Virus genome (UHGV): UHGV-0008794
From: a virus
DNA: 56,220 nucleotides
Strand: one strand, 5' to 3'
A program made the position numbers and the translations under genes. Shown piece by piece: positions 1-31,063 of the stretch. The notes under the pieces are model-generated. The model was not told the DNA's origin. It made no database searches and saw nothing but the letters and a program-made list of their open reading frames with translations. The number at the start of each line of letters is the position of its first letter. Position 1 is the stretch's first letter.

Positions 1-74
1 ATGGAGATTTCCTACGTCCCCATTTCATACCAAGGACACCGTAGTGCATTAAATAGTCTGGATATTGGTACATG
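1..74 (-). CDS. MYQYPDYL-family small protein, 5' partial (only N-terminus in window; ATG at 72-74, gene runs off window start)
   Basis: Revcomp of 1-74 translates MYQYPDYLMHYGVLGMKWGRRKSP; nt 15-74 identical to 446-505 and 3483-3542; strong RBS GGAAGGAGGAATC just upstream (75-90). Confidence 0.6.
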
Positions 75-166: not shown

Positions 167-505
167 TTATAATAATTCAGGACCAGGGTTCTTTTTCTTA
201 TAACTTTTAATAAATTTATCAACATCTTTTGAAGACTTAAAGTTTTGTTTATCCAATTCTGACAATAAAACTTTACCGTAATTAGCTAGAGCCAATTGTG
301 ATTTTCCTTTTCTTATAGCAACACTATCATTAGCCATTTTGCCATAAGAAACGTTCTCTTTTCCAAACGTCTCGAATTTATTAATGTCTCTAGAATACTG
401 GCGCTTAACCTTGGCAACTTTCTTAGCAGCTCGGCGTTCACGTCTACGTCCCCATTTCATACCAAGGACACCGTAGTGCATTAAATAGTCTGGATATTGG
501 TACAT
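167..505 (-). CDS. MYQYPDYL-family small basic protein (112 aa)
   Basis: ORF track; conserved N-terminus MYQYPDYLMHYGVLGMKWGRRR; K/R-rich remainder; upstream CTGAAAATTCAG(AG)7TCAAATC leader instead of canonical SD. Confidence 0.7.
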   Translation of the reverse strand: MYQYPDYLMHYGVLGMKWGRRRERRAAKKVAKVKRQYSRDINKFETFGKENVSYGKMANDSVAIRKGKSQLALANYGKVLLSELDKQNFKSSKDVDKFIKSYKKKNPGPELL

Positions 506-773: not shown

Positions 774-2519
774 CTATTCAAATGAATCTTTATTAAGTTT
801 ATATGCAATGTAAGCATCCATCATTGCTGCAACCGAGTCGATTTTATCGTCTCTACGCTGTTTTGCAAGCTTTTTGTTACCATTAGTATCTTCAATAGTA
901 ATACAATTACCCATGCAAAATTCCATCAATTCTTCATCAAATAAAAGAAGACGATTCTCAGCCAATTTCTTCAATTCACCTAAAGGAACCGATTCTGTTT
1001 TAGCTCCCTGAATAACTTTTTCTATTCCAAAAGGACCGTTCTCAGTTTGCCATCTCTGAACAAAATCTTTAGCATTATAAGGATCATACCCAAAAGCACA
1101 AACATCATATTCTTTTTCATTTATGAATTGATCGAGATCATCATAGACTTCATTCATATCTAAAGTTACACAATCAAGGACTATCAAAGACCCTTCATTC
1201 ATAAAATCTTCATATTTCAAACGAGTAGCAATAGAAAGTTTATTCATTGTATCAGATGAAATATAGCAACGGGTTTTAACGCCATACCGTTCTTTTGATA
1301 AAGGAAATAAAAAAGTAAAAGCACAGAAGTCATCGCCTTGCGATAAGTCGGCTCCCATAGCACATGGTAATTGCCAAAAATCACGATGACGATGAACTTT
1401 AGTTTCTTCGTAAGTAAAGAAGAATGTAAAACCTTCCATTGGAAGACCAAAACGCTTAGCAAGAATATCGTTACGAGCAGAAGGAACCTTCTCAGCACGT
1501 TCAACATCCAATTGATATGTTTCATAGGTAACGGTTTTACCAATATTTGGAGCAGCCTTCATCCACATTGATGGGTCGGCTACTTCTTGAACACTATCAA
1601 GTTTATAATACCAAATGGAAACATGCGGATTCTCGTATTCGCCTTTTAGAATATCCATAAGTTCCATTTTAATACTGTCGCCAACACCATTACGAACGGT
1701 TCCTTCCGAACTCGTAGCCACAATAAGCCAATCATCTAGTTTAGAAGCGCCTTGTTCTGTTGCACCCACAACATCTTCACGAGTGTTTCCGGATAGCCAT
1801 TCATCGATAGTCGTATACTTAGGTCGACTACCCTGGATCTTATCAATAGACATTGGTCGAGATTCCAAAAGGGAATTCGTAAGAAAGTTTTCAATTCCCT
1901 TTTTTGTTGAAGACAACTTAACTCTATCCGCTTTACTTCCCGTAGTATTCTGAAGAGAACCTTCTGTTAAGAACTTAAATACTGGGCCAAGAGATCTAGC
2001 AATAGCAGTTCTTATTGGTGCCAATACCTCATCTGCTTGAGCAAGCGTTGGTGCCATTGTCATCTGAGTAGTTGTTTCGGTGTCGACTACAAGTCCGTAA
2101 GCTTGAATCGACGATGCATACAAAGACTTGGCACTACCGCGAGAGACGATCAAATATTGTTTATTAATAAGTCGTTTTTTCTTACGTTTAAGAACGTAAC
2201 GACCACCATGACCATCTTCAAAAGGTTCATAAACAGAACGCTCAACGAAATAATACCAACCAAATATCTGTTCGGCCCACAACTTAAATGTATCAAGCAG
2301 ATGAAGAGATGAACCATCGGTTAATGTTAGTTCGTTTTCACAAAACTTAATATAACCTTCAACGGCTTTATCATCGTAATAGTAACGAGGATCTAGAATA
2401 AGATTGTCTATACGATTCATTTCCATTGACACTTCTCGGCATACCGGAATCTCCCCAGCTATAACAGCATCTCGGAATTGCCCGTAATAGATAGGAGTTG
2501 CAGTGTTTGAAAGTGTCAT
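774..2519 (-). CDS. terL: terminase large subunit
   Basis: 584-aa ORF; N-terminal ATPase with Walker-A-like VSRGSAKS; C-terminal acidic nuclease-like region; size typical. Start moved to ATG (M4) with AGGTGA RBS; track M1 is GTG. Confidence 0.75.
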   Translation of the reverse strand: MTLSNTATPIYYGQFRDAVIAGEIPVCREVSMEMNRIDNLILDPRYYYDDKAVEGYIKFCENELTLTDGSSLHLLDTFKLWAEQIFGWYYFVERSVYEPFEDGHGGRYVLKRKKKRLINKQYLIVSRGSAKSLYASSIQAYGLVVDTETTTQMTMAPTLAQADEVLAPIRTAIARSLGPVFKFLTEGSLQNTTGSKADRVKLSSTKKGIENFLTNSLLESRPMSIDKIQGSRPKYTTIDEWLSGNTREDVVGATEQGASKLDDWLIVATSSEGTVRNGVGDSIKMELMDILKGEYENPHVSIWYYKLDSVQEVADPSMWMKAAPNIGKTVTYETYQLDVERAEKVPSARNDILAKRFGLPMEGFTFFFTYEETKVHRHRDFWQLPCAMGADLSQGDDFCAFTFLFPLSKERYGVKTRCYISSDTMNKLSIATRLKYEDFMNEGSLIVLDCVTLDMNEVYDDLDQFINEKEYDVCAFGYDPYNAKDFVQRWQTENGPFGIEKVIQGAKTESVPLGELKKLAENRLLLFDEELMEFCMGNCITIEDTNGNKKLAKQRRDDKIDSVAAMMDAYIAYKLNKDSFE

Positions 2520-2582
2520 GGATTTCACCTACTTCATTATATTTTTTCTCAACTTTTTAATTCCGATTTTACACTACTATTT

Positions 2583-2624: not shown

Positions 2625-2996
2625 TTAGATAAACCCTTTGGTTGCAAGAAATACAGCTCCAGCAGTACCAATAGCGCCGCCTGCTACTGTTGCAATAGAT
2701 CCGCGTTTTGACACTTCTTTATTCAATGCGTTTGCATATTTAGCAGTCAATAGTCGGCCATCAGATTTAGCCTTAGATATTACCTGATGATTTTTATTTG
2801 TGTCATGTTTAGCTCCTCCAGCTTTAACATCTTTTCGCCATTGAAGAGCTTCTTCATCAGAAATTCTAGATTCGCTTTTATTAAGACGTTTTGACATTTG
2901 CTTTTTAGACCGACCAATAAGTATCTGTCTACGTCTCTGTCCCCACTTCATGCCTTTAATGCCATGGTGAGCAAGATAATCTGGATATTGGTACAT
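2625..2996 (-). CDS. MYQYPDYL-family paralog with C-terminal glycine-rich TM segment (123 aa)
   Basis: N-terminus MYQYPDYLAHHGIKGMKWGQRRR; C-terminus VAGGAIGTAGAVFLATKGFI hydrophobic; (CT)5 leader upstream. Confidence 0.65.
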   Translation of the reverse strand: MYQYPDYLAHHGIKGMKWGQRRRQILIGRSKKQMSKRLNKSESRISDEEALQWRKDVKAGGAKHDTNKNHQVISKAKSDGRLLTAKYANALNKEVSKRGSIATVAGGAIGTAGAVFLATKGFI

Positions 2997-3020
2997 GATT
3001 TGACTCTCTCTCTGAATGTG

Positions 3021-3542
3021 TTATGCATTAGATAAAAGTTCACCAACGGTAAGACCGGATTTGGTTTTCTTTTTGGCGTATTTACCAAGAATATCGTCTA
3101 CGGATTTTTGCCCAGTATTAACGTAATTATCCCAAGCCTTTCTTTCAGAAATCTCCGACTTTCCACTCGGTATATTTGAAAGGTAATGATCCTCTAAACC
3201 TTCTTGCCATTTTCTATACGACTTACTTCCCTTTTCAAAAGGATTACTTTTATCACGGTCAGCTTGCTTTTTTGCTTTAGCCATACGTCGGTCAAAATCT
3301 TTTTCTGATTTATCAAAAGCTTTAGACCATTTATCACGAGATGATTTTACATTACTCTCATGCCTCGTATATTCGGACGTACCTCGAACAGCAGAATACG
3401 TATCACTAACTTGTTTACTGCGATTGTAAGCTTTATTAGCTACTTTTTTAATATGCTTTGCCGATTTTTTTTGAGCCCTGCGTTGTCCCCATTTCATACC
3501 AAGGACACCGTAGTGCATTAAATAGTCTGGATATTGGTACAT
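3021..3542 (-). CDS. MYQYPDYL-family paralog (173 aa from internal ATG)
   Basis: Track ORF starts earlier (MSVEGGIM..) but GGAAGGAGGAATC RBS directly precedes the MYQYPDYL ATG; first 57 nt identical to other copies. Confidence 0.65.
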   Translation of the reverse strand: MYQYPDYLMHYGVLGMKWGQRRAQKKSAKHIKKVANKAYNRSKQVSDTYSAVRGTSEYTRHESNVKSSRDKWSKAFDKSEKDFDRRMAKAKKQADRDKSNPFEKGSKSYRKWQEGLEDHYLSNIPSGKSEISERKAWDNYVNTGQKSVDDILGKYAKKKTKSGLTVGELLSNA

Positions 3543-3961
3543 GATTCCTCCTTCCACGGACAAGTATCATGCGGTTTACGAACAATAGGATCTGATGGGA
3601 GGAGACTCTGATTACCATAATGAATAGCTTCGTGTGTTTTGTGAGAAACACAAATTACGTTATCCATTGAAAAGATTAACGGATCACGATCTTCGATTTG
3701 TTCGGATGTTATAGGATTAATATGATGGATGATTATTCGCCCAACAATATTATAACCTTCAAGTCCCATATCAAAACCTTGATCACGAATGATTACAAGA
3801 TTGCGAAACGAACGCCATTCTTGCGACCAATACAAAGCTTGGTTAAGATATCGATCAAATCCAAACGTTTCGCTTCCAACACATCCATTCAATTTCAAAT
3901 ACTTAAATCGATCTGTATAGTTCTGGATTTTCATCAACTCAGAATAACTCTTCAATGTCAT
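3518..3961 (-). CDS. HNH homing-type endonuclease
   Basis: HNH signature GLEGYNIVGRIIIHHINPITSEQ...NVICVSHKTHEAIH (His-Asn-His with CxxH); start trimmed to internal ATG (M44) to avoid 150-nt overlap with upstream ORF. Confidence 0.7.
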   Translation of the reverse strand: MTLKSYSELMKIQNYTDRFKYLKLNGCVGSETFGFDRYLNQALYWSQEWRSFRNLVIIRDQGFDMGLEGYNIVGRIIIHHINPITSEQIEDRDPLIFSMDNVICVSHKTHEAIHYGNQSLLPSDPIVRKPHDTCPWKEESCTNIQTI

Positions 3962-4448: not shown

Positions 4449-4524
4449 TTGGTGCGGGGTGACGGATTCGAACCGACAACCAAGAGATTATGAGTCACCT
4501 GCTCCACCCTTGAGCTAACCCCGC
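4449..4524 (-). tRNA. tRNA-Met (anticodon CAT), CCA encoded
   Basis: minus-sense GCGGGGTTAGCTCAAGGGTGGAGCAGGTGACTCATAATCTCTTGGTTGTCGGTTCGAATCCGTCACCCCGCACCA; cloverleaf with anticodon loop CTCATAA. Confidence 0.8.
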
Positions 4525-4525
4525 A

Positions 4526-4609
4526 TTGGTACCTCCGATGGGATTCGAACCCATACTCCTTAAGGAAACGGATTTTAAGTCCGTCGTGTCTGCCGTTCCA
4601 CCACGGAGG
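4526..4609 (-). tRNA. tRNA-Leu (anticodon TAA), long variable arm, CCA encoded
   Basis: minus-sense GCCTCCGTGGTGGAACGG...GGACTTAAAATCCG...TTCCTTAAGGAGTATGGGTTCGAATCCCATCGGAGGTACCA; anticodon loop CTTAAAA. Confidence 0.8.
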
Positions 4610-4631
4610 CGATTATAGGAAGAATCGGTGT

Positions 4632-4994
4632 TTACTTTTGTCGCAACGAATACTTTCTAGTTGAAACGTCGTAAACTACAACATATTTTTCTTGTGCTTT
4701 CTTTATATACGAATTGGTAGTCTTTGCATAATGATTGGCGTATTTTTGAAGTTGTTTTGCATTATCTTGAGCATGTTTGATTTGAGCGTACTTTTGACCA
4801 TACGCAATAGGCCCAGCCTCTCGAGCAGAAGCATCACGTTTTTTTGCTTCTATTTTCCAGGCATTGGCCTTTTGTTGATACCGGTCTGCTTTCTTAGCCT
4901 TACGATTTAATCGTGAAGTTATAACCTTTTTACGTACACCCCATTTCATGCCTGGGATACCGTAGTGCATTAAGTGGTCTGGATATTGATACAT
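4632..4994 (-). CDS. MYQYPDYL-family paralog (120 aa)
   Basis: N-terminus MYQYPDHLMHYGIPGMKWGVRKK (diverged at a few nt); (CT)7 leader upstream. Confidence 0.65.
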   Translation of the reverse strand: MYQYPDHLMHYGIPGMKWGVRKKVITSRLNRKAKKADRYQQKANAWKIEAKKRDASAREAGPIAYGQKYAQIKHAQDNAKQLQKYANHYAKTTNSYIKKAQEKYVVVYDVSTRKYSLRQK

Positions 4995-5152
4995 GATTTG
5001 ACTCTCTCTCTCTCTGAATTTTCAGAGGAAAACCCTATCTCTAAATTCAAAATTCCATTTTGACCCCCGGAGAATTTTTGAAGACCCGCGCGATGAAGGG
5101 AGGGGGTATTTTTTGCGAAACCACCTCTCCCCCCACCTTTGAATAAGATATA

Positions 5153-5386
5153 TTATTCATCAGTAACTTTTTTATAGAAACCATCTGGATTCATTTGAAT
5201 GATTTCATCAATTGCATCTTCGACAGCTTGGTCTTGGGCTAAGTTGCCTAAGTCATTTGAAGTTATCGCAATCCTTGCTAAGTAACCTGATGTACAGTAG
5301 CCTTTTGATTCATCATAATTATACCATTCATCAAACTCTGTAATAGGATTGAAAGGATTATCGACAGTTGTTAGCATCACAGTCAT
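5153..5386 (-). CDS. small acidic hypothetical protein (77 aa), last gene of replication/RNAP operon
   Basis: ORF track; D/E-rich; tightly follows the RNAP-like gene. Confidence 0.5.
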   Translation of the reverse strand: MTVMLTTVDNPFNPITEFDEWYNYDESKGYCTSGYLARIAITSNDLGNLAQDQAVEDAIDEIIQMNPDGFYKKVTDE

Positions 5387-5398
5387 GTCTCATCCTTT

Positions 5399-8098
5399 CT
5401 ATACTGTAAGTGCTTTCTGAATAGTAGATGTTGAGACGCCAAGACTATCAGCTATCTCAGCAAGGGTATAACCATTAGCCTCAAGAGCTTTAGCTTTCGA
5501 TACTTTGCCTGGGCTCATGCCTTTAAACTCTCTAGGCATAGCTAACTGTTTAAGAGTATCTAGATCCGAGTTGTTGATGATCTGCTTAAGTTTGTTAGAA
5601 GAGATAGCACCAGCTTGAATAGCTTCCCATTCAGAAGACGTTATCTGTATCTGTTGTTTACCAGCCCCCGTTTTAGCACGAGCCTTAATAAGAGCTCTGG
5701 ATTTAAGCTTTTTAATATCATCACTATCTAGATTAGGATTTGCATCTCGTACAGCTTTAACTTCGGCATTGGCTAATAGCTGGGCCTTTCTTTCTAAAGG
5801 TCTATTCTTTAATGCTGTGTTAAGCTTAGCATCCAAAGAAGAAACCTCTTTGTTATACTTCTTCTTAGCCTCAGGAGAATACGGAATTGGCTTGGTATTA
5901 CGAGACTGGATACGGGCTTGATTTGCTAGTGATTTTAATTTATTAGCATGTTCAGCATATACACTTTCAATCATAGTTCCAGAAGACAAAGAATATGCAT
6001 CACTTGTGTCCGCCATCTTTGTAGTCTTCTGTAAACGAAGAACTTCTTTCCCTGATTTATTCGTGTATGTTTCGCCAGTCTCTCGAAATATCTTTTCACC
6101 ACGGTTATAACGCGTCAATTCTTCAGGAGTCATATTCTTAGTGCTTGTAATTTCTTTTCTTACAGGCACTCGTTTATCACCTGAAGCTCGAGAAATAAGA
6201 GTTGAAGCTCCTGCATTTTCTCGACCTTGATATTTCTTCTTCAAAGCGCGAATATTATTATCAATCTCCGATTGTTTATAATTTAAATTATGCTTCTCGG
6301 CATCAATAACAACCATTGAATGACGAACTGCTGCCGCAATTTCATTCGGATCCGCACCTCGAATAGTCATATCAGTAATTAGATTTGAAACATCGCCCAT
6401 TTGACGTTGTTTATTAAATCCAGAACCTTTATCGCCAGTACGAATCATTCCAGGATATGCTGGATATGAAACCTTAGGATCAAAATCTTTCAAACCTTTC
6501 AATGGATCTGACGTTCGAATATTCGCACCACTCATTGGAATAACAAGAACTGTATCACCATCAAAGTCCGCACCAGACAAACGCTCAGCAACTTTAGGAT
6601 TAATACCGACAGCATCTTTAGCATTATGAATAAGACTATTAGCCGTTTTATGCTTATTATTCACTGTAAGTTCAGGAATCTCAAATGTTCCTCCATGAGG
6701 ATATCGAACCAAAGCTACTCGTTCACCATTACGAAATGAAGGAGCATAAATCTCGGTGTCTTTCATATCAGGGAATGGTAAAATAACTTTGGATGCCTGA
6801 CGAGGAAGACCGGCAGCTTTTAGATGAACAGCAGCTGAATCGCAACCATCAGCAAATTTTTCAAGAAGCTGTTGTTTGATAATGGGATTCTCTAATTTTA
6901 TAATCTCATTATATTCTTCAGCTTTAAGATCATAAGCCAATTTCAATTGCTTTTTTGCAAGCATGGGAGACTGTTTAGATAACATCTGAGAAGATAAGCT
7001 TTTTCGCCAAACGTTCCAATCGCCTTCTTCGTTAACGATATTTAAAGCCGATTGCTGTTTTTTACCATTCTTGTCGATGTAATATCGCTGAGCCATGACT
7101 AAGCGATCTTCACCCTTAATGGTTGCGCCAAAAGGATTATCAGAATCTTTCTTCATAGGTTTTAAAACACTATGGTCTTTTTCTCCGAGCATCGGAGTTC
7201 CTTTAGATTTGTTAGTGTTAAAGACAATGTCAACGCCTTCGGGCATGTTATCGCTATACATAGCCATACCCTTAATATAATGAGTGCCATCAACAGCAAT
7301 TCGAACTTGAGCATAACGAGCGTTACCTAAGGAAATATCATCAACACCTCGACGAAGCTCAATAACGCCATCTTTATCGATGCCACCATCCTCTTTGTAG
7401 TTAATTTTAACTCGCTTAGAGGATATACTTACTGGAGCCTTTAAAGAATCATATGAAGTTCCTTTATCGCTCGAATGATATCCAGGAAATTCAATTTTGT
7501 CTCGATTCTTAGAAACTTCAGAATATGTAGTACCTGGTTTAGCAAGAACCATGATCGATGTTTTTTTACCAGTGCCCATCTGTTCGGTCTGAATATAATG
7601 TCGAGTATATCCTTCTTCTTCCAATTTACGAATTGAATTATCCAGAACGTTACGACTTACACCCATTTGATTCTCAACGCCACCGCCAACATCAATATAA
7701 CCTTTCTTGTCAACAGCTTTTTTAAGCACATCGGCAGTCATGGTTGTCTTGTTTGCGCGATCTGTAGCTTGAGGTTTCAAATAATTACGAACAGTAGATT
7801 CATTAGTTCCCATTTTTTCAGCAATAGCGACATTAGAATATCCTTTTGCTTTTAACTTTTGAGCTTCTGAAACTCTAGCTGCATATACTTCATTTCGAGC
7901 ATTAGAATATTGAGAACGATATTGTTTAACGGTTAGACCGCATGCGTCAGCAACTTCTTTCTCGCTAAGTCCGCTTTTCTTTAATTCATTAGCATAATTA
8001 TAAAAGTCCGAATCGCGCTGATATGGATCATCACCGCTTCCCCACGGATATCGACCGGAATGGCGCTTAGTGCCATAATGATATAGTTCATCAAACAT
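5399..8098 (-). CDS. putative single-chain two-barrel (multisubunit-type, YonO-like) DNA-dependent RNA polymerase with HTH modules
   Basis: 899 aa; VRYPHGGTFEIPEL...SGADFDGDTVLVIPMSG matches the universal beta-prime active-site segment (RQPTLHRLGIQAFEP...NADFDGDQMAVHVPLS); several sigma-region-4-like HTH stretches at N- and C-termini; start ATG overlaps upstream stop (TAATG). Confidence 0.5.
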   Translation of the reverse strand: MFDELYHYGTKRHSGRYPWGSGDDPYQRDSDFYNYANELKKSGLSEKEVADACGLTVKQYRSQYSNARNEVYAARVSEAQKLKAKGYSNVAIAEKMGTNESTVRNYLKPQATDRANKTTMTADVLKKAVDKKGYIDVGGGVENQMGVSRNVLDNSIRKLEEEGYTRHYIQTEQMGTGKKTSIMVLAKPGTTYSEVSKNRDKIEFPGYHSSDKGTSYDSLKAPVSISSKRVKINYKEDGGIDKDGVIELRRGVDDISLGNARYAQVRIAVDGTHYIKGMAMYSDNMPEGVDIVFNTNKSKGTPMLGEKDHSVLKPMKKDSDNPFGATIKGEDRLVMAQRYYIDKNGKKQQSALNIVNEEGDWNVWRKSLSSQMLSKQSPMLAKKQLKLAYDLKAEEYNEIIKLENPIIKQQLLEKFADGCDSAAVHLKAAGLPRQASKVILPFPDMKDTEIYAPSFRNGERVALVRYPHGGTFEIPELTVNNKHKTANSLIHNAKDAVGINPKVAERLSGADFDGDTVLVIPMSGANIRTSDPLKGLKDFDPKVSYPAYPGMIRTGDKGSGFNKQRQMGDVSNLITDMTIRGADPNEIAAAVRHSMVVIDAEKHNLNYKQSEIDNNIRALKKKYQGRENAGASTLISRASGDKRVPVRKEITSTKNMTPEELTRYNRGEKIFRETGETYTNKSGKEVLRLQKTTKMADTSDAYSLSSGTMIESVYAEHANKLKSLANQARIQSRNTKPIPYSPEAKKKYNKEVSSLDAKLNTALKNRPLERKAQLLANAEVKAVRDANPNLDSDDIKKLKSRALIKARAKTGAGKQQIQITSSEWEAIQAGAISSNKLKQIINNSDLDTLKQLAMPREFKGMSPGKVSKAKALEANGYTLAEIADSLGVSTSTIQKALTV

Positions 8099-8920: not shown

Positions 8921-8993
8921 AAAAACACCTTTTAAATAAAAAGACGAAGAGTAGAAGAACCTTAAATCAAGGTCTTATTCTACTCCTCTTCTA

Positions 8994-10262
8994 TTATAGC
9001 ACATGATTTTTCTGCGAATCAAGATTCTCTATAAAAATGGACTCATTGAAGTTTTTCTTAGATTGAATCGCTCTGAATATACTTGCGTCAATCGATGAGT
9101 TAGATCTCAGTCGATAATAATACAGATCGGAATATGGAGTATTGATCCTATCAATACGACCAGCAGCCTGTTCCATAATTTTGTATGAGTAATTCAATGA
9201 GTAAAATACAATCACATTGGTTTCCACACAATTCCAACCTTCAGCGCCGGCTGTATACTGAACCAAATATACCCATCGATCGCCATCTAAAATAGCCTCA
9301 TGCTTATGCCCATTCCACTCGGACCAAGGAATTTGATTGTTCTCTAATAGTTCTCTCAAGATTTCCAACTCATAATCGAAATTGTAGAATACGATTACCT
9401 TAGAATTCAAATTGAGAATACTAAGCAGTTCTGCAGTTCTAGAAATATCTGAATTAACAATTTTTCTAAAAACAAGACATGCTTCTCCAGCATTACGAAT
9501 TGGTCTTCCTTCAAATACGTGCCATTTATCTTTTGAAGCTTGCTTATAAAGCTCCTTGTCATAATCAACTAGTATATCATTAAAATGTCTAATAGCTTTC
9601 TTTTGATATTCCATAGTAACAACAATTTGCTTTCGATATTCTTCTAATCGATGACAATTAATGTAACGTTCAATTTTAGGATATTTGGAAAATCGACTAA
9701 AGACAGCATGTTCTCTAAGAAATTCAGTTTTATTTTTATAGAACCCATTCGCTAAGAACACCGGAATATAATCAGACCAAGTATCACCTGGCGTAGCAGA
9801 AAGCAGTATCCAATGATTGCTTTTAGAAATCTTGAGAAACGACTTAACCCATTTACCAGAACCGACTAAACGCTGTTCGTCAAATATAAAGAACGAATCT
9901 TTAACATTAACATATTTTGCGATATTATTCCAACTATCGATAACCAATTTTGTTCCCCAATAACTATCAGTCTTAGATAATAAAAATGGAAGACATTCTT
10001 GGTCCCACTCGCAAGTATTTCGTTTACGAGCAGTTGTAATAATATACAAATCTTTTGGTTTAGTCATTGGTAAAAGTTCGCCATCTTGAATTTTGCCTCC
10101 GCATTCATGACAAAAATAATAGGCGATGGAAGTTCTGGACTTGCCAGATCCGACCCCACCACATAAGATGGAGCCAGACCTTAGCTCGTCCATTGCTTTA
10201 CTCTGATGCGGATATAAACTAATATTCATCCGAGATATCAGCATACTTGTCGGCAAATTCAT
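8994..10262 (-). CDS. SF2 (DEAD/SNF2-like) helicase
   Basis: Walker A GGVGSGKS, DEQR Walker B (FIFDEQRL), motif III LLSATPG; start uncertain (track 10271 is TTG; ATGs at 10262 and 10229). Confidence 0.65.
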   Translation of the reverse strand: MNLPTSMLISRMNISLYPHQSKAMDELRSGSILCGGVGSGKSRTSIAYYFCHECGGKIQDGELLPMTKPKDLYIITTARKRNTCEWDQECLPFLLSKTDSYWGTKLVIDSWNNIAKYVNVKDSFFIFDEQRLVGSGKWVKSFLKISKSNHWILLSATPGDTWSDYIPVFLANGFYKNKTEFLREHAVFSRFSKYPKIERYINCHRLEEYRKQIVVTMEYQKKAIRHFNDILVDYDKELYKQASKDKWHVFEGRPIRNAGEACLVFRKIVNSDISRTAELLSILNLNSKVIVFYNFDYELEILRELLENNQIPWSEWNGHKHEAILDGDRWVYLVQYTAGAEGWNCVETNVIVFYSLNYSYKIMEQAAGRIDRINTPYSDLYYYRLRSNSSIDASIFRAIQSKKNFNESIFIENLDSQKNHVL

Positions 10263-10680
10263 CTTCGACAAGCGTCACATACATATTCTTTACGTAAGCC
10301 TTAACGCCAACCTTACCATTCACTTCCCAATTATAAGGGCGAATAATAAGATCAATATTCTCAATTTCAGCATAATCAAGAATATCAATAGTATCGCTAT
10401 TCAAACGATTCTTATGATGGCCAGTAATCGTAAAGATATTGGGTTCGATATTATCAAAACTTACTGCAACCTGAATATAAGGAGTCGCCTCATCACCTTC
10501 CTCACGAGGACGAAGGAATTTAACATTCCAACCCTCATCAATCATTTGATCTGCCAAATCCTGATCTAGTCGAACACAGAAATTACGCTTACCCGCAGCA
10601 TTGAACTTACTAGCTTCACCACGGAAATTACGGAACATGATATGAGCATTCTCAATTGCAATATTACCATTAACAGTCAT
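10219..10680 (-). CDS. putative ssDNA-binding protein (DUF2815-like)
   Basis: 153 aa; overall pattern and position between helicase and polymerase resembles phage DUF2815 SSB-like proteins; acidic C-terminal tail DEFADKYADISDEY typical of SSB tails. Confidence 0.35.
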   Translation of the reverse strand: MTVNGNIAIENAHIMFRNFRGEASKFNAAGKRNFCVRLDQDLADQMIDEGWNVKFLRPREEGDEATPYIQVAVSFDNIEPNIFTITGHHKNRLNSDTIDILDYAEIENIDLIIRPYNWEVNGKVGVKAYVKNMYVTLVEDEFADKYADISDEY

Positions 10681-13600
10681 TACTTTGCCTCTTTCTCAAA
10701 TATACCTTTTACCAACTCGCAATCTTTGTGCCAAACACATTGGGCACATTGATCGAGATTCAAATCTTTAACATCCGGTTGCGAACACCACGGTAGAATA
10801 TGACTTTCGTCTACATCGCTACTAGAAATATCGCTGAAGATCTCAAAGTCACCATAGCTCGAAATGTTTTTCTTAGCTTCATCAACAAAATTCACAAAAT
10901 ATGATTCATCGATGTCTTCAAGCTTGTTACAATTCTTAACGGTCTCGGATTCAAGCCAACGATATCCTTTAGTCCCAGTAGCAGAATGATACTTTCCATC
11001 TTTCTCACGCACCAATACTCCGCCGCCGCAACCAGACTTAATCGGACAGAAAGAACCAACCTTACCAATGAATGAATATGCATGACCTTTAGCAATCATA
11101 TTCTTTAAATTGTCATCAGAAATATCGCTGAATTCTGGATCAAGCCGCTTCGATTTCTTTTCTTGATCAGAATCGAGCTTTGCGTTAAATATACGATTGG
11201 TCAATTCTTTCTCTTCAGCAGAAACATCAGGAAGAGATTCATTCATATCCAAATACAAAGCGCTCGTCACAGATTTAGTTGTACAAAGATCTTCGAATCG
11301 AATAGGATCTTTAGAAAATAATGTCTTAAAGACATATGGTTCTTGAAACTGTGCACCAGTAGCTGTCCAACTTGTAGTTACTTTCTCACCAGTCGGCAAC
11401 TTAAATTCATGTTCGCCATCATTGTATCGAGCAATATAAACCGCATCGTTAACAATACACATTCGATCATATGTCGCTTCATGTTCGAAATTATAACCGT
11501 ACTTCTTGCCAAACTCCATGACGAAATCTTTCATTTCTTCCGTTACATTGGCAAGTTTGATAGAATCGGTCTTGATATGAACAACAGTCCAACCCTTATC
11601 CATACAAGCATTCTTCAAATCAATCATAAACAAAGCTCCACGCTTTGCCACGATATTATCAACATTACGAGGATCCCTAAACGGATTCTCGAACTTAGCA
11701 GAAGTCAATCCATAAATAGAATTGACAACTGTCTTCAAAGCATTTGATAAATCTTTGTTGGTAAAATCAGCGGTTCCGTCTTTAAGCTTTTCTACGAACG
11801 GAACCAACTTACCATCCAGAAGATCATCAAGCTCGTTATAATCTTTGTGCTTGATCAAAATACGCGACTTCTTAATATCACTAAATCGCTTCGTGTATTT
11901 ATCTCCAAACAAATTTAACTGCTCAATGCTCGTAGGATGCATGGATGCAATGTCGAACAACCCAACATTCCAATACATTCCAGGTTGAGCATAAACATAT
12001 CCGCCTTCACCGGTTTCCTCACCACGATAATAGCTCTTACCATGATCGAAAGTATATCCCGGAAACATCTCAGACAGATCAGTATATACAAACTGAGATT
12101 GAGGATGACGATCATTACCAAATATAATTCGAGCAGAATGCTGATTGGTTGTATCGTTAACACTCAGACCAGAAAGTTCTGCAAGAATTTGACGAGCAGT
12201 CCAGTCACCAGAAAGATGATTGAATACGGCTTCAGTAGAAATAACATCGTTATCACAATACTCTGCAACTTCTACCCATCGATCTTCCGGAACCGGTTGA
12301 TCCCAAGGAAGACCAAGCTCTTGATGATGAAGACCAAGCTCAATTTCCCACTTCTTCAAACTCTTCTTATTTACGGCTGATGCAAAATCATAAACATCGG
12401 TATAGGAAATATTGTAAGCTTCACCAAAGAATGCATTGCGACTGCCACTGACAATCTTTTGACTCAGATTATACAGCTCAATGTTACTGTAACCCAAATA
12501 TCGAGCATACAAAATGTGATTATCGTAACGACGACAATTAAAGCCAACAAGCTTCGCATTCATCAATTGCTCAACTTCTTCAGGAGTTGGATTAATCATA
12601 CGAACACATTGGGTATTGTCTCCTTGATATTTCCAATTGATCAAGAACAAATTAGGAAATACCTCAACATCGAAAAACACCAAACGATCGTCATTGTAAT
12701 CATTAACAAAATCACTTGGTGTCTCCGACTTAAAATGCATCTTGGCTACAAGCTTCAAACAATAATCAGCTTGGTGAGAGCTATTGTTTGCGAACACCAT
12801 GATCTTCGGACGCATATCTGTGACATCGTATGGAAGTCCAGATTCATATGCTTCCTCAAGAATCTTGTAAATAAAATCAACACTCGGTTTTGTACCTGGA
12901 TGATATTCCTTGTTAAGATTCTTCTCAATCAGAGTTCGCAATGCTCGTTCGGACTTCACGCTACTGAAGTTGAGCATCTTTTCTCCTTTCAAAGGCAACC
13001 CACTATTAATATGAGCCACAGGAACATCATTACAATAAGACAGCCTACGCCTTAATGAACTATTCCCGTTAAATACTTTAATCTCGATTCCTTCAGAATA
13101 TACACAACTCAATTTAGCGACATCACCATCGTAAATATAATGAAGATGAACTCCAGCACCGCCTTTGCTAAATTCACCATAGGTTGTTGGCCACTTTGAA
13201 GCAGCTTCCAAATTTAACTTAGCCGACTTCTCTCCATTCTCCCCTTTAATATCAAAGTCAATCACAATATGATTCAAAGGCGGTTTTACATAATGAACAC
13301 GAGTCGTTTGAATATCTTTCAGCGTAGTTTTAACGCTATCCCATTTACAAGAAGGAGTTTCTTTCTTTGTTGCATATTGAGCCAAACAATCTGCTAATTC
13401 GATATCCAACAACGATTCAGTCTTATCGAATATTAATCCGCATTTTTCTTCTTTGGTATCATTCGGTTCAGTTTTAATAGCTCCAGGAACCACATTAGAG
13501 AATTTCTCTCTTAAAAATCCACCATAATAATTTCGAACCTGTTTGCTATCATCACCAATTCGAATAATTGTATCGAATGTACGAAAATAATTCTTTAGCT

Positions 13601-14804
13601 CTTCACGGAATCGATATTTCGGCATTTTGTATTCAACTTGTGCTTCGTCACAATATGTTTTATACAAATCATATGCTTGCTTCAATGTTACACCATCTTG
13701 TTTATCAAAGATCAAATACGAATCTTCAATAAAATTGAAGAACACATCAGTCTTGAACATCATGTCTACGGGACGATAGGAATTATAGTAATTCTTACCC
13801 ATTTCCTTATAAACATCAAGACAATGTTGTGCAATAGCACCAAGCTCGAATGGAATCTTATCCATCAGATATTGATATCGGGAAGCTTCGATTTTCTTAC
13901 CGCTCGGACGAACATCAATCAAACGTCGAATAATACCAGACTTAGCGTCGGTAATCTTAACCGGACGATTCGTAGCCATGAAAAGAAAACAATTCAACTT
14001 AGAAGTATAACTCGCCTTATACTTTTCATTCATTATCATCTCTTCGTGAGAAATAATTGAATTAAGTTTCGTATTATCTTCAATTCGACTCAGATCACCA
14101 TCATGCTGAAGTGCAACCAAAGGATTCGATTTAAATGCTTCAGTAGAAAACGTATTATTGCTAGAAGCAAGAGCCTTGGCTTCGAATGCCGTATAATATC
14201 CTTCGAACAACATTTGAATGATGTTCAATATGGTGGACTTACCAGCACCGGCTTCGCCATACAGCACAATGAATTTCTGAATATCTCTACTGTCGCCAGA
14301 AACAACAGCTCCTATTCCCCATTCGAGCTTTGCTCTTTCCTCTGGTTCATAAAGAGTTCCAATTATCTCATCGAAAGAGCTATAATCTCCTGCTTCCAAA
14401 GGATATGACAACTTGTGTGAGGCGTAATCGTCTTTCTTAACTTCCGTATTAGAAAATATAAGCTTGCTATCCAATTGCTTATAATTATCCGGAAGATCTT
14501 TAACCCAACGGCAATAAGATTTCCAAGATCCAGAACCATAAGATGAAGCCCAAGCAATCTGAATATCTGAACTAGAAAACAAATCGACACATTTGTCATA
14601 CTCATCTTGAAGATCTTTATCGATAAGTTGACGAACAAAATATTCATCCTTAGACCAAAGTCCAGTATTCGGATCATACACTGCATAGAACGATTTGCCA
14701 CGAACCATAAAATCGCTGAAGCCGCCAACCTTAAAATCCGGGTATATCTCAAGAGTCTTACCCTTATCCTTCATTCGACGTCGAATTGTGTAAAAATCCA
14801 TCAA
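10680..14804 (-). CDS. fused replicase: P4/D5-type SF3 helicase NTPase + primase-polymerase (AEP)-like domain + family B DNA polymerase with 3'-5' exonuclease
   Basis: 1374 aa; Walker A GEAGAGKS with P4-primase C-terminal pattern; VIDFDIK...GGAGVHLHYIYDGD AEP-like; Exo I FFDVEVF, Exo II YCDNDV; PolB motif A FDIASMHPTS, motif B KTVVNSIYG, motif C HIKTDS. Confidence 0.75.
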   Translation of the reverse strand: MMDFYTIRRRMKDKGKTLEIYPDFKVGGFSDFMVRGKSFYAVYDPNTGLWSKDEYFVRQLIDKDLQDEYDKCVDLFSSSDIQIAWASSYGSGSWKSYCRWVKDLPDNYKQLDSKLIFSNTEVKKDDYASHKLSYPLEAGDYSSFDEIIGTLYEPEERAKLEWGIGAVVSGDSRDIQKFIVLYGEAGAGKSTILNIIQMLFEGYYTAFEAKALASSNNTFSTEAFKSNPLVALQHDGDLSRIEDNTKLNSIISHEEMIMNEKYKASYTSKLNCFLFMATNRPVKITDAKSGIIRRLIDVRPSGKKIEASRYQYLMDKIPFELGAIAQHCLDVYKEMGKNYYNSYRPVDMMFKTDVFFNFIEDSYLIFDKQDGVTLKQAYDLYKTYCDEAQVEYKMPKYRFREELKNYFRTFDTIIRIGDDSKQVRNYYGGFLREKFSNVVPGAIKTEPNDTKEEKCGLIFDKTESLLDIELADCLAQYATKKETPSCKWDSVKTTLKDIQTTRVHYVKPPLNHIVIDFDIKGENGEKSAKLNLEAASKWPTTYGEFSKGGAGVHLHYIYDGDVAKLSCVYSEGIEIKVFNGNSSLRRRLSYCNDVPVAHINSGLPLKGEKMLNFSSVKSERALRTLIEKNLNKEYHPGTKPSVDFIYKILEEAYESGLPYDVTDMRPKIMVFANNSSHQADYCLKLVAKMHFKSETPSDFVNDYNDDRLVFFDVEVFPNLFLINWKYQGDNTQCVRMINPTPEEVEQLMNAKLVGFNCRRYDNHILYARYLGYSNIELYNLSQKIVSGSRNAFFGEAYNISYTDVYDFASAVNKKSLKKWEIELGLHHQELGLPWDQPVPEDRWVEVAEYCDNDVISTEAVFNHLSGDWTARQILAELSGLSVNDTTNQHSARIIFGNDRHPQSQFVYTDLSEMFPGYTFDHGKSYYRGEETGEGGYVYAQPGMYWNVGLFDIASMHPTSIEQLNLFGDKYTKRFSDIKKSRILIKHKDYNELDDLLDGKLVPFVEKLKDGTADFTNKDLSNALKTVVNSIYGLTSAKFENPFRDPRNVDNIVAKRGALFMIDLKNACMDKGWTVVHIKTDSIKLANVTEEMKDFVMEFGKKYGYNFEHEATYDRMCIVNDAVYIARYNDGEHEFKLPTGEKVTTSWTATGAQFQEPYVFKTLFSKDPIRFEDLCTTKSVTSALYLDMNESLPDVSAEEKELTNRIFNAKLDSDQEKKSKRLDPEFSDISDDNLKNMIAKGHAYSFIGKVGSFCPIKSGCGGGVLVREKDGKYHSATGTKGYRWLESETVKNCNKLEDIDESYFVNFVDEAKKNISSYGDFEIFSDISSSDVDESHILPWCSQPDVKDLNLDQCAQCVWHKDCELVKGIFEKEAK

Positions 14805-17882: not shown

Positions 17883-17906
17883 ATTATAGGATATGTTATT
17901 TCTGCG
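17883..17906 (-). promoter_or_regulatory. conserved early-type promoter motif copy 1 (CGCAGA-N12-TATAAT, minus sense)
   Basis: minus-sense TTTCGCAGAAATAACATATCCTATAATAGAG about 30 nt upstream of ATG 17852. Confidence 0.5.
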
Positions 17907-18093
17907 AAAGTTGTGGAAGTTTCTCTTTACCGATCAAAATATCATAGAGATATTGAGCATCTTCATCTTGAAATGCATTAATTACTTCCGGAACAGGCTT
18001 AGTCGGATCTTGCACGCCAATGCAAATAAGATTGACCTGTCCATTAAATTTTCGATCGGTACCAATTACAAAACTATCGGGTTTATCAGACAT
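17896..18093 (-). CDS. hypothetical small protein (65 aa)
   Basis: ORF track; a further 48-52-aa minus-strand ORF (about 18081-18236, MGIQMSINIKDQRDW...) lies upstream and was not in the track. Confidence 0.4.
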   Translation of the reverse strand: MSDKPDSFVIGTDRKFNGQVNLICIGVQDPTKPVPEVINAFQDEDAQYLYDILIGKEKLPQLSQK

Positions 18094-19158: not shown

Positions 19159-19425
19159 TTACTTTTCGACCTCTCCGCAAATCATACTAACCTGCTTACT
19201 AGCTTCTCTGCCGCAAGCATCGCCAACAATCGCTCCTACTAGTCCTGTACCAACAATATACGCACCTTTAATAAAGGCATTCGCATTCGCTGGAGCAAAG
19301 ACTCCTAGAACGGTTCCAGTCATGATACTTCCGCAAATATTGCCCGTAATTTCAACAGCATTTTTCACAGCATTAACGTCGATTGCAAACATAACAAACT
19401 CCTTTTCGCAAGTTTTCTCCGTCAT
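19159..19425 (-). CDS. small glycine-zipper membrane protein (88 aa), trio member 3
   Basis: GTGLVGAIVGDACGREA and ITGNICGSIMTGTVLGVFAPANA GxxxG repeats; own promoter motif upstream. Confidence 0.55.
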   Translation of the reverse strand: MTEKTCEKEFVMFAIDVNAVKNAVEITGNICGSIMTGTVLGVFAPANANAFIKGAYIVGTGLVGAIVGDACGREASKQVSMICGEVEK

Positions 19426-19447
19426 TATAGCGTATGAAATTCTTGCG
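19424..19447 (-). promoter_or_regulatory. conserved promoter motif copy 2 (CGCAAG-N12-TATAAT)
   Basis: minus-sense GTCGCAAGAATTTCATACGCTATAATGACGGAG. Confidence 0.5.
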
Positions 19448-19712
19448 ACACATAAGATTCTTTTTCTTCTGGGAGTATATCGTTGATCGTCTTCAGTACA
19501 TTTTTGGTATCGTCGATAATATAATTTGCGACTTTATCGCCAATATAAGCACCAATAGCTCCAGTTCCAATCGCAACGGCAATTCGTTCAACAAGACCCA
19601 TGTTGGTCGGAAGAGCGGCACCAATGACTTTACAAACTACTAAACCAATACAACCGCTACTAATAAGACCCGCGCCATTAGCAATCGTTTCAACGTTTTC
19701 GATCTTCTTCAT
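19425..19712 (-). CDS. small glycine-zipper membrane protein (95 aa from internal ATG), trio member 2
   Basis: IGTGAIGAYIGD, CIGLVVCKVIGAAL; start moved to MKKIENV ATG with GGGAGTTTGTT leader (track start is upstream leader read-through). Confidence 0.55.
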   Translation of the reverse strand: MKKIENVETIANGAGLISSGCIGLVVCKVIGAALPTNMGLVERIAVAIGTGAIGAYIGDKVANYIIDDTKNVLKTINDILPEEKESYVSQEFHTL

Positions 19713-20052: not shown

Positions 20053-20075
20053 ATTATAGCGCATGAAAAAATTGC
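20053..20075 (-). promoter_or_regulatory. conserved promoter motif copy 3 (CGCAAT-N12-TATAAT)
   Basis: minus-sense ATTCGCAATTTTTTCATGCGCTATAATGACATGG. Confidence 0.5.
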
Positions 20076-20172
20076 GAATTATTTAATTCCTCGCAATCGA
20101 TCGAAAATATACACAACTAAACCAATAGATGTGATTAAGAAAAAACTTTAACTAATAAATCTTCTAGCAAAT

Positions 20173-21704: not shown

Positions 21705-21729
21705 CGTTATAGGGTGTGAAATATCTGCG
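21705..21729 (-). promoter_or_regulatory. conserved promoter motif copy 4 (CGCAGA-N12-TATAAC variant); overlaps 3' end of an untracked 58-aa Cys-rich ORF (about 21699-21875)
   Basis: minus-sense GGTCGCAGATATTTCACACCCTATAACGAAG. Confidence 0.4.
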
Positions 21730-21874
21730 ACCTCAATATAATGCTCATCGTCAAACTTCTTAAAATTTACAGCATGACGAATATCAAGCGTATGACTGCA
21801 CTCGGGATTTGGAATGATATTACATCCATCGCAAGCTTTACGATCGCATAAATATGCGACTTTAATGTTATTCA

Positions 21875-24955: not shown

Positions 24956-24979
24956 ATTATAAGATGTGTTTTTTCTGCG
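24956..24979 (-). promoter_or_regulatory. conserved promoter motif copy 5 (CGCAGA-N12-TATAAT)
   Basis: minus-sense TCTCGCAGAAAAAACACATCTTATAATAGAGTG. Confidence 0.5.
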
Positions 24980-25003
24980 AGAAAAGGAGATGTAAATATA
25001 GCG

Positions 25004-29929: not shown

Positions 29930-30066
29930 GGTTCTTTCTCCTTTCAAGAAATTTGGTGAAAAAATTAACACGACAAAAGTATAGCAGGACTCAGATCCTG
30001 CAGCTTCGTCCGTAGACGACGTTGTTCCGTTTTCAACTATATACTTTCCCCGCGTTAAAAAAGAAG

Positions 30067-30163: not shown

Positions 30164-30187
30164 ATTATAAGACGTGAAAAAATTGCG
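30164..30187 (-). promoter_or_regulatory. conserved promoter motif copy 6 (CGCAAT-N12-TATAAT)
   Basis: minus-sense CCTCGCAATTTTTTCACGTCTTATAATGAAGAG; 30-nt core identical to copy 7. Confidence 0.5.
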
Positions 30188-30191
30188 AGGT

Positions 30192-30308: not shown

Positions 30309-30332
30309 ATTATAAGACGTGAAAAAATTGCG
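30309..30332 (-). promoter_or_regulatory. conserved promoter motif copy 7 (CGCAAT-N12-TATAAT)
   Basis: minus-sense TTTCGCAATTTTTTCACGTCTTATAATGAAGAGG. Confidence 0.5.
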
Positions 30333-30403
30333 AAAAAAATATACGCCATGTAATTTATACACAGCGTATATCTCAAATGTCATAAACCTGATGAAATTTC
30401 TAC

Positions 30404-30720: not shown

Positions 30721-30743
30721 ATTATAGCGCGTGTTATTCTTGC
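30721..30743 (-). promoter_or_regulatory. conserved promoter motif copy 8 (CGCAAG-N12-TATAAT)
   Basis: minus-sense ATCGCAAGAATAACACGCGCTATAATGAAGGTC. Confidence 0.5.
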
Positions 30744-31063
30744 GATTGTTTATTATTCACAGTTACCATGAAGGACTTCTTCTTGGCTAGATCTGCCCAA
30801 TCGGAATTTACTTCAAGAGCATACTGCTTGTCTTCCTCAGCATTTGGATCGACATTCAGTATTGCGTCGCCAGAATAATTCGACGTGCTGATCTTCAAAC
30901 ATGCACCAAGAAATACAGTAACGGCGCCGATCGTTCCGACAACCTGTTCGACAAAAGGAAAACCCCACAAAACAGCAAGGGCTGCATACAGAGTAGCTGC
31001 GGCAGGAAGGAAGATCTGAACAAGCCACTTGAGAGCATCATATACTTTATCGTTCAAAACCAT
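30734..31063 (-). CDS. holin-like small membrane protein (2 TM, about 109 aa)
   Basis: LVQIFLPAAATLYAALAVLWGFPF and VVGTIGAVTVFLGACL TM helices, charged C-terminus; track start is GTG overlapping upstream gene; ATG with AAGGA RBS chosen. Confidence 0.45.
   Translation of the reverse strand: MVLNDKVYDALKWLVQIFLPAAATLYAALAVLWGFPFVEQVVGTIGAVTVFLGACLKISTSNYSGDAILNVDPNAEEDKQYALEVNSDWADLAKKKSFMVTVNNKQSQE

Follow-up and report, generated by a model that had tools for sequence, protein, structure and literature searches.

Several phages carry an RNA polymerase (RNAP) in the particle for early transcription from phage-specific promoters, among them N4 (gp50), the crAss-like phage phi14:2 (gp66) and Thermus phage P23-45, in which the enzyme is fused to the tape measure protein (PMC10770324; bioRxiv 10.1101/2020.03.07.982082). 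The virus genome UHGV-0008794, analysed here over its whole length of 56,220 nucleotides (nt; hereafter the window), encodes a protein of 899 amino acids (aa) that resembles this group in being a phage polymerase and, as judged from the annotation of a relative in Lactococcus phage 1706, may also be carried by the virion. The enzymes gp66 and that of P23-45 are also single-chain two-barrel polymerases, but the former is a giant cargo protein and the latter a tape-measure fusion, whereas the window encodes a free 100-kDa protein that starts with a tag of 28 residues. N4 gp50 has a T7-like instead of a two-barrel fold. The best structural matches, namely the cellular RNA-dependent RNA polymerases QDE-1 and RDR2 (the latter from plants) and the non-virion phage enzymes P74 gp62 and YonO, share the DxDGD loop and the single-chain two-barrel core. 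Compared to these, the protein of the window is only 10-14% identical and is distinguished by helix-turn-helix (HTH) domains at both ends and by the N-terminal tag.

Short peptides that mark cargo proteins are also known from other systems. The capsid targeting sequence (CTS) of T4, present on IPI-III and Alt, is found at the N-terminus only, and the prohead protease cleaves it off. A motif resembling the polymerase tag is found in the window on small paralogous proteins of the Pfam family DUF7211 (PF23847). As in T4, a short peptide is thereby carried by several unrelated proteins of one phage; the T4 cargo, which comprises small basic proteins and enzymes, resides in the head and is ejected with the DNA. 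There is no sequence similarity to the CTS, the motif described here can be internal, and the window encodes a fusion of protease and capsid protein without a separate scaffold core. Encapsulins and phages with MuF-domain cargo (polymorphic toxins) use a short disordered peptide or a small domain to dock diverse cargo enzymes to the interior of an HK97-fold shell or to the portal; the motifs are different and the comparison is an analogy only. Taken together, the results are best read as a virion-incorporation tag on an injected, promoter-specific polymerase, and for this complete chain we see an even balance of probabilities.

RNAP activity has already been proposed for the family of the 899-aa protein, which marks a supercluster of actinophages together with Lactococcus and Faecalibacterium phages (Koert et al., bioRxiv 10.1101/842583). 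Streptomyces-phage papers of 2024 and 2026 only repeat the label 'RNA-dependent RNA polymerase', and this database name of the family is one transferred by homology. The protein matches phrog_4291 of the PHROGs database end to end. An AlphaFold2 (AF2) model computed from an alignment of 114 sequences reached a mean predicted local distance difference test score (pLDDT) of 89 and a predicted template modelling score (pTM) of 0.80. When the model was compared to the PDB with Foldseek, the best matches were QDE-1 (E 2e-8), Thermus phage P74 gp62 (E 1e-6) and RDR2 (E 5e-6), with TM-scores of only about 0.3 across the whole chain; beta-prime subunits of cellular RNAPs were found as further, weak matches. 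By sequence, the family profile yielded only HTH matches in the PDB and a weak match of the DFDGD loop to 8h2n, the tape-measure RNAP of P23-45.

Residues G509, A510, D511, D513, G514 and D515 of the GADFDGD loop are invariant in the 114 homologs. Two features of two-barrel RNAPs, the DxDGD metal-binding loop and the overall fold, were found in the protein. Sigma-70 region-4-like HTH domains are located at both ends (residues ~32-132 and 855-898), and these regions also show weak matches to the small-terminase families phrog_7067, phrog_309 and Pfam Terminase_5. The initial annotation of the window had called the protein RNAP-like, which is borne out by the AF2 fold, the two-barrel matches in the PDB, the invariant GADFDGD and the earlier proposal by Koert et al. 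The model supports the view that the protein is a single-chain two-barrel RNAP with built-in sigma-region-4-like HTHs, for which RNA synthesis is predicted.

The tag makes up the first ~28 residues and has the layout acidic-x-hydrophobic-x-HYG-T-(variable loop)-SGRYPWGSG-x-x-PYQ. Since the gene lies on the minus strand, the tag is encoded at 8098-8015 and not at 5399-5500, where it had originally been placed; at the latter positions the gene ends (3'), and its product has the C-terminal HTH there. The start of the open reading frame (ORF), MFDELYHYGTKRHSGRYPWGSG, is encoded at 8098-8033. This start is well supported: a GGAGGA ribosome-binding site is present upstream, the upstream exonuclease gene has its stop codon in overlap with the start codon, and the homologs align from residue 2-5 on.

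The tag had also been described as a degenerate version of the motif, which does not hold. In the alignment of 114 diverse homologs, whose members are 47-57% identical overall to the query polymerase, H7, G9, S14, G15 and R16 are invariant, while Y17, G20, S21, G22 and Q27 are conserved in at least 90% of the sequences; the tag thus matches the catalytic DFDGD in conservation. A representative search yielded 942 clusters of polymerase homologs with E<1e-30, and the tag was seen in essentially all of the best 150 representatives. That the motif is real and conserved can be regarded as virtually certain. The loop between HYG and SGRY accepts insertions of 8-12 residues, and extensions of 20-170 residues may stand before the tag. 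In a set of 50,697 phage records, which was used for all counts of this kind, the polymerase-type tag was present at 252 places, distributed over 251 records; it invariably opens the polymerase gene and has one copy per genome.

Residues 1-30 of the polymerase have a pLDDT of ~44 within the otherwise confident AF2 model, and the tag is left unpacked against the rest of the enzyme. For the DUF7211 protein p123, a pLDDT of ~50 was obtained for the tag (residues 1-20). Both motif types are predicted to be disordered, and invariance combined with disorder is typically seen in peptides that become folded upon binding to a partner. A type VII secretion signal (WxG / YxxxD) was rejected, since the motif has WG instead of WxG and YxxxD is missing from the actinophage copies. 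No Pfam match to choline-binding or GW cell-wall repeats was obtained, and such repeats would make no sense on a polymerase.

The initial annotation had aligned the start of the polymerase with the N-termini of the small paralogs on a common skeleton (Y-x-x-HYG-x-K/G...-WG-x-G/R). For the paralogs, the observation was correct: five of them start with MYQYPDYL(M/A)H(Y/H)G..GMKWG.RR, and PF23847 matches the small paralogs with E-values of 6e-10 to 1e-11 (38.7-44.3 bits, gathering score 27 bits). Profile-profile alignment of 147 polymerase and 91 DUF7211 N-termini resulted in an hhalign score of 27.1 (P 1.5e-6, probability 90%), compared to a mean of ~8, a standard deviation of ~2.4 and a maximum of 18.8 for 400 column-shuffled controls. 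A second DUF7211 profile of wider phylogenetic range, which combines phages of Streptomyces, Rhodococcus, Gordonia and Lactococcus with gut contigs, yielded 28.3 (P 4.5e-7; shuffles 7.7 ± 1.9, maximum 13.8). With a hidden Markov model (HMM) of the polymerase tag, DUF7211 proteins ranked right behind the true polymerases and were the best non-self matches (E 0.009-0.1). PF23847 in turn weakly matched the tag of the polymerase homolog P0141 (E 0.069), with 13 bits and hence below the gathering score. The skeleton occurred at the N-terminus of any other protein in only 5 of 5000 shuffled proteomes.

The resemblance is made up of acidic-x-hydrophobic-x-HYG-[TVI] as the first half and G-x-x-(P)-W-G as the second, with a variable loop between them that is 4 residues longer in the polymerase. 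Shared with PF23847 are '..L-x-HYG-[TVI]' and the W-G of the second half, whereas the polymerase tag differs by a loop insertion of 4-12 residues, by SGRYPWGSG..PYQ in place of GMKWG.RR and by being single-copy. Other results speak against a relationship. PF23847 gave no match to the N-terminus of the polymerase (28 and 41 aa) even at E<=10, so that by the curated criterion the polymerase is not a DUF7211 member. The matches of the tag HMM to DUF7211 proteins are marginal and span the first half only ('..L.HYG[TV]'). No forms intermediate between the two motifs were seen among the sequences compared, and together with the marginal cross-matches this makes convergence or a partial exchange of 5' ends possible. 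On balance, the alignments point to the polymerase tag as a likely sister subtype of the DUF7211 motif (..HYG-V-K-GMKWG-x-R-R) and to a relationship of the two. The shared skeleton thus proved to be a real and non-random resemblance, although a short one between separate subtypes and not one between a family motif and its degenerate copy.

The DUF7211 motif is used in a modular way, in proteins of 100-560 aa. It is located at the head of proteins of 100-360 aa with unrelated remainders and is also embedded at residue ~350 of ~540-aa proteins with an N-terminal LigT/2H-phosphoesterase domain, namely Gordonia Fazel gp13, Perkunas gp14 and ReqiPoco6 gp015. In the polymerase homologs P0141 and P0163, a LigT domain of ~165 aa stands immediately before the polymerase-type tag; that of P0141 scores 32 bits on 2_5_RNA_ligase2, matches Acb1 weakly and is homologous to the LigT domain of Fazel gp13 (E 9e-5). 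A LigT fusion ahead of both tag types (P0141 and P0163; loci L008 7513-9186, L009 6440-7993 and L002 14111-15727) suggests that a signal-degrading or RNA-repair enzyme is delivered as virion cargo. DUF7211 genes flank the genes for the large terminase (TerL) and the portal in all loci examined (window, Scap1, ReqiPoco6 with seven copies, Fazel, Perkunas and two metagenomic contigs). A literature search for DUF7211 and the motif strings returned nothing relevant and no published function.

Indirect evidence for virion association comes from Lactococcus phage 1706 (EU081845). Its ORF75 is a full-length ortholog of the polymerase, 40% identical to it between residues 3 and 893; the two tags agree throughout HYGTKRHSGRYPWGSGDD. 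ORF75 was deposited as 'structural protein', while its neighbours are listed as 'unknown'. ORF7 of the same phage, which has two DUF7211 motifs and is located immediately upstream of the terminase gene, was also deposited as 'structural protein'. In this record, names based on homology carry the word 'putative', and the plain label was given to ORF6, 7, 11, 12, 17, 20, 21, 62, 71 and 75. The record of ReqiPoco6 repeats '1706_gp75 structural protein'. The 2008 paper on phage 1706 reportedly combined sodium dodecyl sulfate polyacrylamide gel electrophoresis with liquid chromatography-tandem mass spectrometry. Together with this, we take the plain label as a sign of experimental detection and consider that the polymerase is probably virion-associated in this lineage. 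For the earlier proposal that the RNAP is co-packaged and injected, the deposited annotation of the 1706 orthologs is indirect experimental support, whereas the role of the motif as a packaging tag is one that we infer.

The window contains nine copies of the pattern TCGCA-N7-CA-N5-TATAAT (0.15 expected), all of them on the coding strand between 30745 and 8993 and each 20-35 nt upstream of a GAAAGGAG ribosome-binding site. In Arthrobacter phage Gordon, the same pattern and spacing were found at 10 sites (0.21 expected). Streptomyces phage Scap1 has 4 sites at no more than one mismatch (0.02 expected) and more when the variants TGTAGT/TATGAT are included. For Lactococcus phage 1706, nine sites were found within two mismatches (13 matches compared to 5.15 expected) and about a dozen by eye. 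The exact pattern of the window was unmatched in the other loci; matches were obtained when the -10 box could contain R and up to one or two mismatches were accepted. With the -10-like box as anchor of the alignment, the sequence of the sites is ctcgcaagaattacacaccTTATAATgagaag in Gordon, ctcgcaacttttacatgcatTATAGTgagacc in Scap1, tccacatgttttacatacacTATAGTagaaag in 1706 and ctcgcaattttttcacgtctTATAATgaagag in the window, with TCGCA-N7-CA-N5-TATRRT as common pattern and CTCGCAA-N2-TTTACA-N4-YTATART as consensus. In all four genomes the sites start directly past the tail and lysis genes and head the early region.

A reading of the motif as sigma-70 promoter was rejected on geometry: TCGCAA lies 13 nt and the TTTACA-like box 5-6 nt from TATAAT, and there is no TGn extended -10 element. 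The motif is loosely similar to promoters of the T7/SP6 type (..ACACTATAG..). It is kept across hosts with G + C contents of 35-72% (Streptomyces, Arthrobacter, Lactococcus and, for the window, a gut Firmicute), which argues for a phage-encoded reader, and in the list of lineage-conserved genes of Koert et al. (bioRxiv 10.1101/842583) the only transcription-type protein is the 899-aa polymerase family. Judged from these comparisons, the phage polymerase probably uses the motif as its promoter, and it would have to arrive with the DNA if the earliest genes depend on it. A tRNA-like element with a 2-nt 'anticodon' at 29975-30047, just downstream of two identical ORF-less copies of the motif, may be a small RNA.

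Both motifs are limited to one lineage of siphophages infecting Actinobacteria and Firmicutes. The polymerase was found in 250 records, the tag in 251 and DUF7211 in 238 records at 885 places. For seven genera the three counts are identical: Arthrobacter (95), Gordonia (55), Streptomyces (54), Curtobacterium (7), Microbacterium (4), Rhodococcus (4) and Faecalibacterium (2). The remaining differences are accounted for by contigs that are fragmentary and by Lactococcus copies that have diverged. The unannotated record of Bifidobacterium phage BitterVaud1 gave a weak match to the polymerase-type tag at the start of a 922-aa ORF, as well as DUF7211 matches, one of them in the gene immediately upstream of a 581-aa ORF in terminase position.

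Based on these results we propose that, during head assembly, the polymerase tag and the DUF7211 motif would both bind a single head component specific to this lineage. Candidates are the portal and the fused S78 protease-capsid protein that replaces a separate scaffold, of which the inner face or the scaffold part would serve for docking. Docking would turn the tagged proteins into virion cargo that leaves with the DNA, and the injected single-chain two-barrel DNA-dependent RNAP would then transcribe the early and replication genes, starting at the consensus motif, the last copy of which would also drive the operon of the polymerase itself. Modular use on unrelated proteins, predicted disorder, the location of the genes in the head module and the strict co-occurrence of the motifs are consistent with a tag. 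That the tag is a packaging signal is a tentative reading, to which we give somewhat less than even credence. The function as incorporation signal, the identity of the binding partner and the reading of this promoter by this polymerase are all inferred. A broader version, in which both subtypes form a general cargo-loading code of this siphophage lineage, is speculative and on the whole rather doubtful: a disordered peptide of ~25 residues would dock any protein into a scaffold-less HK97-type head or portal for ejection, after which the polymerase would read a promoter of ~30 bp conserved across phyla.

Several observations weigh against the proposed chain. The link between tag and packaging is indirect, and virion association is taken from depositor annotation. 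ORF62 and ORF71 of phage 1706 (L003 45052-45330 and L004 659-1012), small proteins of the replication module, are labelled 'structural protein' and have neither tag; they either enter the virion by another route or are carried along with the DNA. In some proteins the motif is internal (at residue ~350 in Fazel gp13, after the 165-aa LigT domain in P0141, twice in 1706 ORF7), which shows that it is not a strict N-terminal signal like the T4 CTS. Residues ~100-123 of p123 form a conserved hydrophobic C-terminal helix (SIATVAGGAIGTAGAVFLATKGFI), a sign of probable membrane anchoring that is difficult to square with simple capsid cargo. As a perfect TATAAT is present in the promoters, the host polymerase may use them, and the co-occurrence of both motifs could reflect common descent of a single lineage.

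Other explanations of the motif have to be compared with incorporation into the virion. The initial annotation mentioned that it may be a protease-recognition or nucleic-acid-binding element. The motif could also dock onto a hub outside the virion, such as the RNAP of the Gram-positive host, a chaperone, a Clp-type protease or an early phage protein, through which the tagged proteins would be co-regulated, stabilised or degraded, with another cause for the presence in the 1706 virion. A disordered and invariant peptide that can be internal would suit such a hub, as would the membrane-like C-terminus of p123, and with hosts in two phyla a conserved host partner is conceivable. However, the tagged genes are part of the head-assembly module and not of the early genes, both motif types occur on 1706 proteins annotated as structural, and absence of the motif from all other phages in the record set is unexpected for a general host hub, which leaves both the docking and the control of tagged proteins by it unlikely. 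The tag might instead be a working part of the enzyme that serves in initiation or priming, acts as an autoinhibitory plug or helps the adjacent HTH to bind DNA, and its likeness to DUF7211 the trace of an old 5'-end exchange without shared function. Its invariance equals that of the catalytic loop, it stands immediately before the sigma-r4-like HTH and occurs once per genome on the polymerase only; in addition, the paralog 5' ends are homogenised at the DNA level, which indicates that 5'-end exchange does occur in this genome. This is countered by the missing packing of the tag on the enzyme in the AF2 model, the tolerance for 8-12-residue insertions within and 20-170-residue extensions in front of it, the same LigT domain before both tag types and a profile similarity that reaches the WG half, and we regard such a role as quite improbable.

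Binding to the packaging motor was considered as well. The DUF7211 proteins would then be the missing small-terminase-like factors, and the same peptide would lead the polymerase to the terminase or to the end of the DNA. No small terminase is recognisable, a DUF7211 gene is always located immediately upstream of TerL, the HTH regions weakly match small-terminase families and the polymerase gene is the penultimate one before the putative cos site. A small terminase would be expected as a single TerL-adjacent gene with a product absent from the virion, whereas there are 4-7 divergent DUF7211 paralogs per genome and 1706 ORF7 is annotated as virion protein. Since, moreover, the HTH cross-matches are generic, the catalytic loop of the polymerase is intact and its fold is QDE-1-like, little credence can be given to this explanation. 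Chance or convergence, i.e. two unrelated N-termini rich in glycine and aromatic residues that happen to share HYG and WG, could account for the missing Pfam match of the polymerase tag and for HMMER cross E-values of only 0.009-6, and the pattern was picked after the sequences had been seen. With profile-profile scores far beyond those of the shuffles (z ~8-10), the rarity of the skeleton in shuffled proteomes and the agreement of both motifs in N-terminal position, lineage restriction and fusion partner, a coincidence is hardly credible.

The coordinates of the described features are summarised in Table 1.

Table 1 Features of the window (56,220 nt) discussed in the text
Feature	Coordinates	Strand	Basis or remark
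899-aa two-barrel RNA-polymerase-like protein gene	5399..8098	minus	ORF translation; phrog_4291 full-length match
Polymerase N-terminal tag, residues 1-28 (MFDELYHYGTKRHSGRYPWGSGDDPYQR)	8015..8098	minus	translation, homolog conservation, low pLDDT, profile-profile link to DUF7211
N-terminal HTH region, residues ~32-132, sigma-70 region 4-like	7703..8005	minus	Pfam Sigma70_r4_2 E 7.8e-12, GerE, HTH_23; AF2 helices 32-132
Catalytic metal-binding loop GADFDGD, residues 509-515	6554..6574	minus	translation; invariant residues in homologs
C-terminal HTH, residues ~855-898	5405..5536	minus	Pfam HTH_23 E 5e-11 (residues 872-896), HTH_3, HTH_38; residues 869-897
Promoter-like site (TCGCAGAAAAATCATGTGCTATAAT) before endonuclease-exonuclease-RNAP operon	8993..9017	minus	last of nine copies
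Other eight promoter-like sites	17883-17907, 19424-19448, 20053-20077, 21706-21730, 24956-24980, 30164-30188, 30309-30333, 30721-30745	minus	
DUF7211 paralog p120 (MYQYPDHLMHYGIPGMKWGVRK...), first gene past putative cos region	4632..4994	minus	Pfam PF23847 E 6.3e-10
DUF7211 paralog p173	3021..3542	minus	Pfam PF23847 E 1.1e-11
DUF7211 paralog p123, AHHG variant, immediately upstream of large terminase gene	2625..2996	minus	N-terminal motif; AF2 model
DUF7211 paralog p112, between terminase and portal genes	167..505	minus	Pfam PF23847 E 1.3e-10
Fifth DUF7211 gene, 5' end only, cut by window start	1..73	minus	motif; likely 3' part 55919-56215
87-nt 5'-end units of DUF7211 genes	18-104, 450-536, 2941-3027, 3487-3573, 4939-5025		
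Large terminase gene, DUF7211 genes on both sides	774..2528	minus	phrog_9 E 9e-105
Portal gene, candidate tag receptor	54207-55505	minus	phrog_12; Phage_portal in related contigs
Connector-like protein gene	55510-55896		
Fused prohead protease / major capsid gene, candidate tag receptor	52145-53998	minus	phrog_3270 head maturation protease; Peptidase_S78 in related contigs

The polymerase gene is the penultimate gene ahead of a G + C-rich putative cos region. This non-coding stretch (4995-5152; GGTGGGGGGAGAGGTGG...CCCCCTCCC...CCGGGGGTC) is located between the 77-aa gene following the polymerase and the first DUF7211 gene, and is likely to hold the cos site and the ends of the genome, similar to the situation in 1706-like phages, which have 3' overhangs. 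A 23-nt repeat with 83% identity between the 5' end of the polymerase gene (8074-8096) and the 77-aa gene (5314-5336) was judged to be due to chance. Megablast of the region against phage genomes yielded only a 180-nt stretch, 75% identical, in the human-gut 'Siphovirus contig89'.

The ORF at 55919-56215 matches the C-terminal parts of phrog_32444 and phrog_7021, which are families that carry the motif. The ends of the window hence appear to split one DUF7211 gene, which indicates that the window is a nearly complete, circularly permuted genome. An identical polymerase is present on contigs of up to 56,361 bp. The S78 prohead protease is fused to the major capsid protein and no separate scaffold gene is present; this fusion and a 1374-aa primase-polymerase (10680-14804) are hallmarks of the supercluster of 1706 and actinophages.

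The 5' ends of the five DUF7211 genes, including their leaders, are alike at the DNA level and form an 87-nt unit that is repeated five times with 71-92% identity. Two alternative leaders, a (GA)n leader (CTGAAAATTCAGAGAGAGAGAGAGTCAAATC-ATG) and GGAAGGAGGAATC-ATG, are each used by a subset of the genes. From the nucleotide sequences, this looks like gene conversion or a recent duplication of tag and leader. Genes for tRNA-Met (4450-4524) and tRNA-Leu (4527-4610) are situated amid the packaging genes, and a 30-nt copy of a tRNA 3' arm is present upstream of the terminase gene (2588-2617).

Virion RNAPs, capsid-targeting peptides, the putative RNAP function of the family and the listing of the 1706 member as structural protein were already known. 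In the searchable literature, we found no mention of the N-terminal peptide with its invariant residues, of a link between it and DUF7211, of the LigT fusion common to both tag types or of the cross-phylum promoter. If the tag is a packaging signal, it would explain how a polymerase is delivered in siphophages of Gram-positive hosts (~250 isolates and >900 metagenomic protein clusters), the set of cargo proteins would become definable from sequence alone, and a testable peptide for loading foreign proteins into capsids would be at hand. Should the general cargo-loading code apply, the cargo would comprise a two-barrel RNAP, LigT/Acb1-type 2H-phosphoesterases that possibly destroy defence signals, and small basic proteins, and it would provide a transferable protein-loading tag along with a polymerase and promoter that work independently of the host. 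The LigT/Acb1-like fusions hint at anti-defence enzymes that are delivered in the same way. Together with the promoter, the long-unannotated 'HTH protein / RNA-dependent RNA polymerase' becomes testable as a promoter-specific injected transcriptase, which, if true, would represent a compact polymerase-promoter pair for both high-GC and low-GC hosts.

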